A stretch of DNA of 64,000 bases from Peptostreptococcales bacterium (GCA_038248745.1 JBBRXC010000001.1:264-64263); one strand, 5' to 3'. Positions 50,847 through 52,646 are shown, numbered from the stretch's first letter. Notes: a model not told the origin generated them from the letters alone. Made by a program: numbers and translations.

Positions 50847-51089
50847 AAAAGACCTCCTACAATCAAACACAAATTATAATTATTGTTTTTACCGTTCCAT
50901 ATTTATGTTTAAAATATACCCCTTAAACAGGTTCATTAATCACAGTAAAAATTTATTTACTAGCATTTATTTTCAAAAACATCTAAGTATGTTTTATCTG
51001 ATAATTTAATAAGTAGGGCAGGGATGAAAATCCTACCCTACAACGATCTTTCATTAGAACGATATCCTTAGAAGTAAGGAATATTTATC

Positions 51090-52238
51090 TCAATACCTGT
51101 ATATTGCGGCGATGCCTGTTGTACTAGGCATTATTTCTTTTGGTAATACAACAACCTTGCCTTTCTTTTTCATGACAAATTCAGCCAGATCATCCAATAC
51201 ATCATCTGTGTCTGGTTTTTCTAGGTCGCCTAGACGAACCGTCCCCGTTTGTAGATCAACTTTACCGGGAATTATTTTTTCTGCTTCGAGGAAAAGGGTT
51301 TCAACCCTGTTTTCTACGGCAGCTAAGGCGACTTTTAACAGGTCATCTGAACCCAAATCATTGGCTTTCGCATTACTATATTTTTCAGCTAAACTCTTAT
51401 TTTTTGCCGAATAAATAGGTTCAACCAATTCCCAAACCTTAACTTTCAGTTCATCCATGGTGAATGCATTATAGGCCCCTTTAATTCCTTCCTTCATCAG
51501 GTAAGGATTATTTGTTATTTTCATAAATTCACTGTGATGCTCTTTTAACGAAACTAAGACAAGTGGCAATTTAGAAGTTTTCGAATGATTCTCCAGAACA
51601 TATTTGTCTACATATCGGAAAAACTTCTCCAAATCTTTTTCCAACTCATTATCCTTTGTCCCATATCCAAAGGGAACAGCACCAGCCCCCGTCCCGGCGA
51701 ATTTGCTATGATTCGTTGAAGGTTCTGTATGCTGATTTCCTAAAACCTCTTCAAGGGTTGTTGGCACACCCTGCATTATTTTTATTTTTTTAATGCCATA
51801 TTTATTCCCTTCATAAAGATTGAATTCCGTACCGCTTAATCCCAGCAACTGATATTTTTCAACGGATTGAAATATCTTAAGAAGAGGCTTGATATGAAGC
51901 GAATCTGCTACGATTGCCAGATTCTCTACAGTTTCATCTAATCTGTATATGATGCATTTATTCAGGTTTGCAAGAACAGCCATTCCTTCCAGCGAATAAT
52001 TCCAAATATTCTTGTCCTCTTCTATCTGCTGAAACATTTCCATAATAGAACTAATATCTTTTTTAGAATACTTTTGTTTTAAGGAAGCTTCAACATCTCT
52101 TATCAAGTTTTTAAAAAGTGTAACATCCTGTTTATTTCCCTTTGAATCCCTATGAGTCGATTGATAAAGAGATACAAATGGTCCTTCTTCTTCAAAAATC
52201 ATCGCATTTGGGAATTCATTTACAATTTCATATTTCAT
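51090..52238 (-). CDS. eRF1/Pelota-like (baeRF-family-like) protein, function unknown
   Basis: 382 aa. The N-terminal VSLYQSTHR and the C-terminal GIAAIYRY resemble, respectively, the characteristic N-terminal motif of bacterial baeRF proteins and the C-terminal motif of the eRF1/Pelota domain. Recognised from memory only. Confidence 0.45.
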   Translation of the reverse strand: MKYEIVNEFPNAMIFEEEGPFVSLYQSTHRDSKGNKQDVTLFKNLIRDVEASLKQKYSKKDISSIMEMFQQIEEDKNIWNYSLEGMAVLANLNKCIIYRLDETVENLAIVADSLHIKPLLKIFQSVEKYQLLGLSGTEFNLYEGNKYGIKKIKIMQGVPTTLEEVLGNQHTEPSTNHSKFAGTGAGAVPFGYGTKDNELEKDLEKFFRYVDKYVLENHSKTSKLPLVLVSLKEHHSEFMKITNNPYLMKEGIKGAYNAFTMDELKVKVWELVEPIYSAKNKSLAEKYSNAKANDLGSDDLLKVALAAVENRVETLFLEAEKIIPGKVDLQTGTVRLGDLEKPDTDDVLDDLAEFVMKKKGKVVVLPKEIMPSTTGIAAIYRY

Positions 52239-52307
52239 ATTATTTCTTTATCCTTTCTATCTTATTTCATATCGGTCCTTACTAAATTTTTCGATGCTAT
52301 TCCATAT

Positions 52308-52412
52308 TTACTTCTTCTCCGCTGGTGTTTTATTTATGTTAGAAGCTTGTGAATTGGTTTTTTCCGCTGTTTTTTTCTGTTTTTTTTGTTTTTTTGGATT
52401 TTTATCTCCCAT
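52308..52412 (-). CDS. Unannotated small ORF encoding a 34-aa lysine-rich peptide
   Basis: Below the track length cutoff. GAGGAGG lies 7 nt upstream of the ATG at 52412. My translation is MGDKNPKKQKKQKKTAEKTNSQASNINKTPAEKK, stop TAA at 52308-52310. The coding DNA contains A7, A8 and A7 runs. Confidence 0.5.
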   Translation of the reverse strand: MGDKNPKKQKKQKKTAEKTNSQASNINKTPAEKK

Positions 52413-52520
52413 AATCTTTCCTCCTCTTTTGAAACAAGGCCACCTTAATTAAAAAGTGGCCTTGTTTGATCCTATACATGATGCTTTTGCCACTCTTCAC
52501 CGATGAGTGATATTATTTCT

Positions 52521-52549
52521 ATTATACCCCGTTTGGGGTGGAAAGTAAA
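52521..52549 (-). promoter_or_regulatory. Sigma-A-type promoter candidate for the small ORF / baeRF-like unit
   Basis: Minus strand: TTTACT (52549-52544), 17-nt spacer, TATAAT (52526-52521). Confidence 0.5.
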
Positions 52550-52555
52550 CGGTCG

Positions 52556-52598
52556 GTTACAAACAAATGGCACCTTTATTTGTTAATAAAGGTGCCAT
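52556..52598 (-). terminator. Intrinsic terminator after the rsgI-like gene
   Basis: ATGGCACCTTTA / TAAAGGTGCCAT 12-bp stem, followed on the minus strand by TTGTTTGT. Confidence 0.6.
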
Positions 52599-52646
52599 CA
52601 GTTCACAGTTTATAATTTATTTTAATACCCCTTCAGTGTTAATTCA

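Follow-up and report, generated by a model that had tools for sequence, protein, structure and literature searches.

We analyzed a stretch of 64,000 nucleotides (nt) from a Peptostreptococcales bacterium (GCA_038248745.1 JBBRXC010000001.1:264-64263; the whole stretch is referred to as the window), in which a short, lysine-rich open reading frame (mini-ORF) lies on the minus strand directly upstream of a gene for a protein of 382 amino acids (aa). We found that the mini-ORF is a genuine gene, conserved and subject to purifying selection among close relatives, and that the 382-aa protein is a homologue of Balon, a member of family 3 of the bacterial archaeo-eukaryotic release factors (baeRFs). 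The explanation that we prefer, with moderate confidence, is a stand-alone small-protein gene cassette with Balon placed behind it in this lineage, the two being co-transcribed in dependence on read-through of a leader hairpin. Balon was described only in 2024, and to our knowledge the control of its expression is largely unexplored. The window's lineage presents a compact, testable arrangement of a strong promoter, a terminator-like leader, the mini-gene and then Balon, and the mini-gene itself marks an unnamed family of ~36-aa proteins, in which the Lys-rich N-terminus is sharply conserved and the leader is conserved as well.

The mini-ORF is a conserved gene upstream of a Balon homologue

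The first-pass annotation of the window had pointed out this ORF, its GAGGAGG ribosome-binding site, the A7, A8 and A7 runs in its first half and a gap of 69 nt to the 382-aa ORF. All of these are found in the sequence, together with one further A5 and one A6 run; the lysines number 11 rather than the 12 claimed. The product has a mass of 3.8 kDa and an isoelectric point of 10.2. The ORF had also been called unannotated, which is true in so far as it carries no name, but the exact peptide already sits in the NCBI + Logan public protein collection, and orthologous mini-ORFs have been called as genes on six related contigs. In the 64-kb window, it is the sole ATG-initiated ORF of 25-60 aa with a strong Shine-Dalgarno (SD) sequence, and the only place where three runs of seven or more A lie within 40 nt.

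An ORF of 34-35 aa occupies the same place in all six close relatives fetched, in which Balon is 76-87% identical; with the window included, the mini-ORF is thus present in 7 of the 7 loci where Balon is 76-100% identical. Its SD sequence is kept in all close relatives (the variant in L019 is AAGGAGG). The mini-ORF is kept although the flanks vary within this clade: the upstream neighbor is GSHPx or RsgI, and the downstream side holds either MacB-type ABC genes or a ClC channel. The pooled ratio of nonsynonymous to synonymous polymorphism (pN/pS) of the mini-ORF was 0.20 in frame, as compared to 0.62 and 1.24 in the other two frames, and pairwise ratios of nonsynonymous to synonymous substitution rates (dN/dS) were 0.06-0.33 for the mini-ORF and 0.12-0.18 for Balon. 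Indels within the clade hit the spacer between the two genes and spare the mini-ORF. The predominance of synonymous substitutions and the indel-free frame indicate a real coding gene.

The 382-aa protein matched Pfam baeRF_family3 (PF18845) over residues 129-311 with an E-value of 5e-38 and 131.5 bits, against a gathering cut-off of 31.5. Its best NCBIfam match was NF052287, the "AOC03_06830 family ribosome hibernation factor" (Balon); this match spanned the full length (E 1.4e-48), and its score of 166.3 bits lies under the equivalog cut-off of 330, indicating that the protein is a relative within the family, not an equivalog. In a phmmer search of the PDB, the sole match was 8rd8_B, the Balon chain of a Psychrobacter ribosome (E 6e-18, residues 18-382). 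When an AlphaFold (AF2) model with a predicted local distance difference test (pLDDT) score of 81.9 was compared with known structures using Foldseek, the best match was 8rdv_B (E 8.7e-25). The top six entries, three of Psychrobacter Balon and three of mycobacterial Msmeg1130/Rv2629, had E-values of 8.7e-25 to 8.4e-15 and template modeling (TM) scores of 0.60-0.69, and aRF1, eRF1 and Pelota ranked below them. The guess of an eRF1/Pelota-fold baeRF, made from the motifs VSLYQSTHR and GIAAIYRY, which both occur in the protein, is borne out by these matches. The accompanying remark that the function of baeRF proteins is largely unknown does not hold for family 3, which is now the characterized Balon family of hibernation factors (PMC10901736). 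Balon sits in the ribosomal A site with EF-Tu during hibernation and is devoid of the GGQ and NIKS motifs of aeRF1 (PMC10901736). Neither motif is present in the 382-aa sequence, and the loop at the GGQ position is not conserved, with pLDDT below 50 at residues 170-193. Binding of the 382-aa protein to the A site of the ribosome and to EF-Tu is putative.

The Balon systems already named include Psychrobacter urativorans AOC03_06830 (PDB 8RD8/8RDV/8RDW) and mycobacterial Msmeg1130 and Rv2629, and PMC10901736 lists YocB of B. subtilis among the homologues. The model of the 382-aa protein resembles Balon in its predicted full-length, three-domain aeRF1/Pelota-like architecture (Foldseek TM 0.64-0.69). 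However, it is only 21% identical to Psychrobacter Balon and scores under the NF052287 cut-off, and, unlike a typical Balon gene, it is not adjacent to raiA/hpf; the HPF gene of the window's genome is on another contig. It is also preceded by a structured leader and the gene of a small protein, an arrangement not included among the common Balon neighbors in the accessible portion of PMC10901736.

The MGDKNP-polyK family and its genomic contexts

We examined how far the pairing of the mini-ORF with Balon extends. No comparable ORF was found upstream of 77 family-3 loci from named genomes (44-59% identity), of three Balon homologues at ~60% identity, of five relatives at 25-27% identity, or of the Balon copy of a same-genus genome (53% identity), the only copy in that genome. 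This gives a total of 86 family-3 loci outside the clade without the mini-ORF. Conversely, family-3 Balon was detectable in only 3 of the 12 peptide-bearing genomes and not in the other nine, as judged by the family-3 profile (A4) only; the only peptide-bearing genomes outside the clade with a Balon homologue elsewhere are those of L106, L107 and L109 (genus g139). Recurrence of the mini-ORF upstream of orthologues is confined to Balon identities of 76% and above. The pairing is specific to the window's narrow lineage and is general neither to Balon nor to the peptide.

The peptide, on the other hand, has relatives well beyond the clade. Members share the N-terminal signature MGDKNP[KN]K.KKKKK..EK, a variable middle and a basic C-terminus (often KKPKK) within 32-42 aa (alignment A7), and across the family conservation is strongest in the N-terminal 19 residues. 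A search of 1.84 billion protein representatives with the close-clade profile gave two clusters, one of them beyond the clade's own; the latter (MGDKNPKKTKKKKKAAEKT...) comes from Oscillospiraceae metagenome-assembled genomes (MAGs) and lies upstream of a glycosyltransferase operon, not of Balon. Six-frame profile searches were more productive: in a sample of ~800 genomes of the same order and class, out of many more, they yielded at least 12 further members in at least 10 families, all peptide searches being limited by a query that is short and of low complexity. Profile E-values were 8.2e-21 for the window's own ORF and 1e-13 to 7e-3 for other genomes, and the guanine-plus-cytosine (GC) content of the hosts spans 29-50%. 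The window's mini-ORF has the motif, the length, the basic C-terminus, the strong SD and the sigma-A promoter with structured leader that characterize the family. The peptide matched no family in Pfam or NCBIfam, and the motif was not found in the literature searched. The small-protein family, which we call MGDKNP-polyK, is previously undescribed and is in no standard domain library; it has a patchy distribution within a single class of low-GC Gram-positive-type bacteria.

The genes that follow the mini-gene differ among lineages. In four of these (L105, L108, L110 and L114), an intrinsic terminator stands straight after the mini-ORF, which makes it a monocistronic gene there. In four families, the mini-gene is followed by a fused Anp1-like and GT2 glycosyltransferase of ~490-530 aa and then by a 415-427-aa protein without a Pfam match (loci in Table 1). 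In genus g85 (L122:6908-13524, genome G059; L108), the mini-gene with its own terminator stands just upstream of a gene for a 2124-aa protein, which has GH94 supersandwich and glucoamylase-like domains and resembles cyclic beta-1,2-glucan synthases. In genus g139 (L106, L107, L109), the gene downstream of it encodes a secreted protein of the Ice_binding-like type (PF11999), after which comes a membrane protein whose N-terminus is basic. In L110, it adjoins two ORFs that resemble universal stress proteins (USPs), as judged by N-terminal sequence only. The family thus repeatedly heads stress- or cell-envelope-related genes, and the recurrent neighbors, namely glycan synthesis, ice-binding-like, USP-like and Balon genes, hint speculatively at a stress or cell-envelope theme.

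Some details of the glycosyltransferase loci were also noticed. The link of the mini-gene to this operon is more widely conserved than its link to Balon. In L123, the Anp1 and GT2 glycosyltransferase is split into ORFs of 279 aa and 132 aa. The N-terminus of the 415-427-aa protein contains ...VGVGFVTGRKNFK..., and in L101 the gene next after this protein encodes a UDP-GlcNAc 2-epimerase.

The leader, the lysine codons and alternative explanations

Upstream of the mini-ORF, a near-consensus sigma-A-type promoter is followed by two hairpins with a variable spacer between them (Table 1). All six close relatives share an unchanged -10 box, TATAAT, whereas the -35 box reads TTTACT in five and TATACT in L008; the promoters of other family members have 9-12 of the 12 consensus matches at the same relative position. 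The stem of the 5'-proximal hairpin is invariant in the close clade, where one loop base varies. In other lineages, the hairpin in this position differs in sequence (ACACT/GGTGT, ACGGCA/TGCTGT, ACGACA/TGTCGT), and the 5' hairpins cannot be aligned reliably between lineages. The ~110-nt leader that contains the terminator-like hairpin folds at -29.4 kcal/mol (z = -3.5); in an alignment of seven sequences, 11 pairs of this hairpin are preserved, and there are three wobble changes, each one-sided. Most other family members have a related GCCACTTT...AAAGTGGC stem with a U-run upstream of the mini-ORF. In addition, AAGAGUGGC, the 3' side of the 5' hairpin, can pair alternatively with the 5' arm of the terminator-like hairpin at -12 to -14 kcal/mol, which 0-7% of shuffles match, and this pairing would give a putative three-stem attenuator design in the window's clade. 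The leader motif CACTCANCGGTGAAGAGTGG occurs once in the window's own genome and therefore defines no regulon there. When the locus (E <= 1) and seven loci of the family (E <= 0.1) were scanned against Rfam, no credible RNA family emerged; matches to a snoRNA and to an Enterococcus sRNA were far under their gathering scores and were rejected as chance.

Table 1. Positions of the mini-gene, the Balon homologue and associated features in the window, and of the glycosyltransferase-operon loci in other lineages.
Feature	Position	Strand	Remarks
Sigma-A-type promoter TTTACT-17-TATAAT	52521..52549	minus	10/12 consensus positions
5'-proximal hairpin CACTC-ATCGGTGAA-GAGTG	52491..52509	minus	At predicted transcript start; in minimum-free-energy fold
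Terminator-like hairpin, core GGCCACTTT / AAGGTGGCC extended by AAACAA/TTGTTT	52432..52467	minus	U-rich 3' side; ends 5 nt before SD
SD GAGGAGG of mini-ORF	52420..52426	minus	Direct sequence reading; 7 nt 5' of ATG
Mini-ORF	52412..52308	minus	ATG start, stop ending 52308; encodes MGDKNPKKQKKQKKTAEKTNSQASNINKTPAEKK, 34 aa
A-rich spacer	52239..52307	minus	Between mini-ORF and Balon; no terminator, no conserved structure
Balon-family (baeRF family 3) homologue, 382 aa	51090..52238	minus	PF18845, NF052287, 8rd8_B, Foldseek
Hairpin GUAGGGUAGG...CCCUGCCCUAC with U/A-rich tail	51013..51041	minus	Probable end of transcription unit; fold of 50985-51095, z = -3.3
Glycosyltransferase operon, L101	469-4557		
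Glycosyltransferase operon, L120	5995-9007		
Glycosyltransferase operon, L121			Mini-ORF 6735 once oriented
Glycosyltransferase operon, L123			Mini-ORF 7059 once oriented

The GCCACTTT...AAAGTGGC stem is conserved across families (the window, L101, L105-L109, L111, L114 and L115), which is unusual for a plain terminator. Possible reasons for this conservation are that the stem takes part in an alternative pairing, that it serves as a binding site, or that the cassette as a whole has spread laterally.

Between the mini-ORF and Balon, no terminator-like site was found on the minus strand, suggesting that the two genes are most likely co-transcribed. The spacer varies from 33 to 80 nt among the close relatives, owing to indels, and no conserved RNA structure was found from the 3' half of the mini-ORF to the start of Balon (consensus fold -0.49 kcal/mol, no covariation). 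In the explanation that we prefer, the cassette would consist of the near-consensus sigma-A promoter, the 5' hairpin, the terminator-like hairpin, the strong SD and the translated mini-ORF; in the window's lineage, Balon, 33-80 nt downstream, would be expressed from the promoter of the mini-gene. The leader hairpin is a possible attenuator, in which case Balon expression would depend on read-through. We infer this co-transcription and attenuation from the sequence features described above, and likewise that the peptide acts in trans. The hairpin downstream of Balon probably ends the transcription unit.

The first-pass annotation had read the A-runs as a trigger of ribosome sliding or stalling. 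We found no support for this. In the window's genome (37% GC), 75% of the Lys codons are AAA and 52% of Lys-Lys pairs are written AAAAAA; with such AAA-heavy usage, the A-runs need no special explanation, the expectation for writing the Lys-rich peptide entirely in AAA by codon usage alone being ~0.75^8, roughly 0.1. Outside the window's clade, AAA and AAG alternate in the Lys tract, and the longest A-run is 5-6 nt in most members. Low-GC members reach runs of 7-9, and in the five low-GC members AAG makes up 44% of the Lys codons within the first 20 codons. Even in a close relative, L010, AAG interrupts two of the three A-runs. This alternation indicates that conservation acts on the peptide and not on the poly-A. 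A pair of successive AAA codons is known to be read normally, and robust sliding needs A11, with little at A9-A10 (Koutmou et al. 2015, PMC4363877). The mini-ORF is like the slippery poly(A) tracks of that study in that pairs of AAA Lys codons give runs of A7-A8. However, with a longest run of A8, it is not a slippery site when such a site is defined as at least 11 consecutive A or at least three consecutive AAA codons (threshold from PMC4363877), and the alternation of AAA and AAG in its relatives agrees with the avoidance of poly(A) tracks that is already known. The A-runs come about incidentally when a peptide rich in Lys is encoded by an AT-rich genome. The idea of a stalling sensor made of poly-A that feeds a rescue factor is unsupported here, which should spare follow-up effort. 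We also considered transcriptional or translational slippage toward an alternative product, and rejected it: the +1 and +2 frames give short, non-conserved peptides.

One alternative explanation, which we regard as unlikely, is that the mini-ORF acts in cis as a leader peptide, such that slow poly-Lys elongation, or the sensing of Lys-tRNA, translation status or an antibiotic, tunes the downstream gene. The promoter, leader and upstream ORF would then form a portable regulatory cassette, placed before Balon here and before glycosyltransferases elsewhere. Stalling or arrest leader peptides controlling a downstream gene are well established (ErmCL-ermC, MifM-yidC2, SecM-secA), and the mini-ORF resembles them as a short, strong-SD ORF directly upstream of, and probably co-transcribed with, a translation-related gene. 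Its runs of Lys codons would be intrinsically slow to translate, as elongation in vitro is slowed by successive Lys codons, whether AAA or AAG (PMC4363877). Balon is mildly deleterious in normal growth, which would call for tight control (PMC10901736).

Several of our observations weigh against a stand-alone gene cassette, and two of them fit the leader peptide as well. Strong conservation across the class is limited to the N-terminal ~19 codons, including the Lys tract, and this also fits a cis element acting on that tract. The cassette precedes different genes without an intervening terminator, both in the Balon lineage and in four glycosyltransferase lineages; in the latter, the same glycosyltransferase gene follows 31-100 nt after the mini-ORF, which is readable as a regulatory leader. 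Furthermore, the terminator stem shows no double compensatory change in the seven-sequence alignment, only wobble-compatible ones, the antiterminator pairing has convincing statistics in no clade but that of the window and is weak elsewhere, and the peptide has no detectable homologue of known function in Pfam, NCBIfam or the literature.

Nevertheless, the mini-ORF departs from arrest leaders in having no hairpin that sequesters a ribosome-binding site and no terminator overlapping or downstream of it. The only terminator-like hairpin lies upstream of the ORF, whose translation therefore cannot control it, and no conserved RNA structure joins the ORF to the ribosome-binding site of Balon across the 33-80-nt spacer. 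Nor is the mini-ORF linked to the downstream gene across orthologues, and in at least four lineages, where a terminator comes straight after it, it exists as a stand-alone, monocistronic gene. The basic C-terminal cluster and the 32-42-aa length are conserved, the dN/dS of the whole ORF is like that of a normal protein, and the A-runs, at most 8 nt here and broken by AAG elsewhere, fall below the A11 needed for robust sliding (PMC4363877). The proposal of a stalling-sensitive leader for the 382-aa factor thus finds no support in RNA coupling, in linkage across orthologues or in the varied gene contexts.

Small proteins that bind hibernating ribosomes are known, such as E. coli Sra/bS22. A second alternative, which we consider rather improbable, is that the peptide is such a partner of Balon in trans, binding hibernating ribosomes together with it through the mRNA channel, the exit tunnel or rRNA. 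Its role would be comparable to that of RaiA, encoded beside Balon in other bacteria, or of the tunnel-plugging RTOF in mycobacteria. The tight linkage and probable co-transcription of the peptide and Balon in all seven clade loci, despite differing flanks, are in accordance with this idea. So is the typical placing of Balon genes beside RaiA (PMC10901736), the HPF gene here being on a different contig, and so are the two USP-like ORFs beside the family member in L110. RTOF/Rv1155a is a 6.8-kDa ribosome-binding hibernation protein with a basic FRRKSG motif (10.1101/2024.11.25.625233), and the peptide is, like RTOF and Sra/bS22, tiny, basic, probably disordered and, in the clade, encoded beside a hibernation factor. 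However, it is Lys-rich rather than Arg-rich and has no detectable sequence similarity to either protein or to any Pfam or NCBIfam family, and its binding to ribosomes is putative. Moreover, 9 of the 12 peptide-bearing genomes are without family-3 Balon detectable by profile A4, the 86 family-3 loci outside the clade are without such an ORF, and most of the other contexts of the peptide are related to the cell envelope or glycan synthesis rather than to the ribosome.

From its composition alone, the peptide probably binds a polyanion such as RNA or ribosomes. Going further, it may represent a novel type of small factor that binds RNA or ribosomes, an idea to which we give little credence at present and which takes two forms. 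In the first, the peptide would join Balon on hibernating ribosomes as a functional stand-in for the RaiA neighbor. In the second, it would bind its own leader hairpin like a miniature N-type basic antiterminator, making the cassette a self-regulating, portable stress switch placed before Balon, cyclic-glucan-synthase-like, ice-binding-like or glycosyltransferase genes in different lineages. Readings of the peptide as a minor small acid-soluble spore protein (SASP)-like spore protein, as Sra/bS22 or as a signal-peptide-like sequence were also tried, and none had support from hidden Markov models; in most family members, moreover, the central part of the peptide lacks hydrophobicity.

Finally, that the mini-ORF is a functionless ORF arisen by chance in an A-rich intergenic region can be dismissed with near certainty: it is short and of low complexity, and the A-rich strands of AT-rich genomes do yield ORFs rich in Lys (among 77 control upstream regions, 10 held some Lys/Arg-rich ORF of at least 18 aa), but those control ORFs have no SD and no sequence in common with it, whereas the mini-ORF is the only small ATG ORF with a strong SD in the window, has homologues across families at 29-50% GC, and shows an in-frame conservation (pN/pS 0.20) that already contradicts chance.

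Relatives of the Balon homologue and minor features of the locus

In most family-3 proteins, the loop at the GGQ position (residues ~196-206) carries a conserved YHGHGG, in place of which the window's clade has PFGYGT or FHGSGS (profile A4). This change may bear on contacts with the peptidyl-transferase center.

A metagenome scan with the Balon protein gave two loci only. Beyond the clade, the closest homologues with a name (57-59% identity) come from MAGs labeled Atribacterota and Actinomycetota (among L021-L024, L027 and L059), and a 51%-identical homologue is found in a Methanomethylovorans MAG. This distribution, together with the same-genus genome having no copy closer than 53%, points to lateral transfer of the Balon subfamily, or to binning errors.

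In the spacer, positions 52255-52263 read ATG-AAA-TAA, a two-codon start-stop present in 6 of the 7 close loci ~20 nt before the SD-like GAAAGGA of Balon; it is probably incidental. On the far side of the mini-gene promoter, a 15-bp hairpin with a T-run (52566-52599) ends the upstream RsgI-like gene before that promoter, indicating that the SigI/RsgI module is a different transcription unit.

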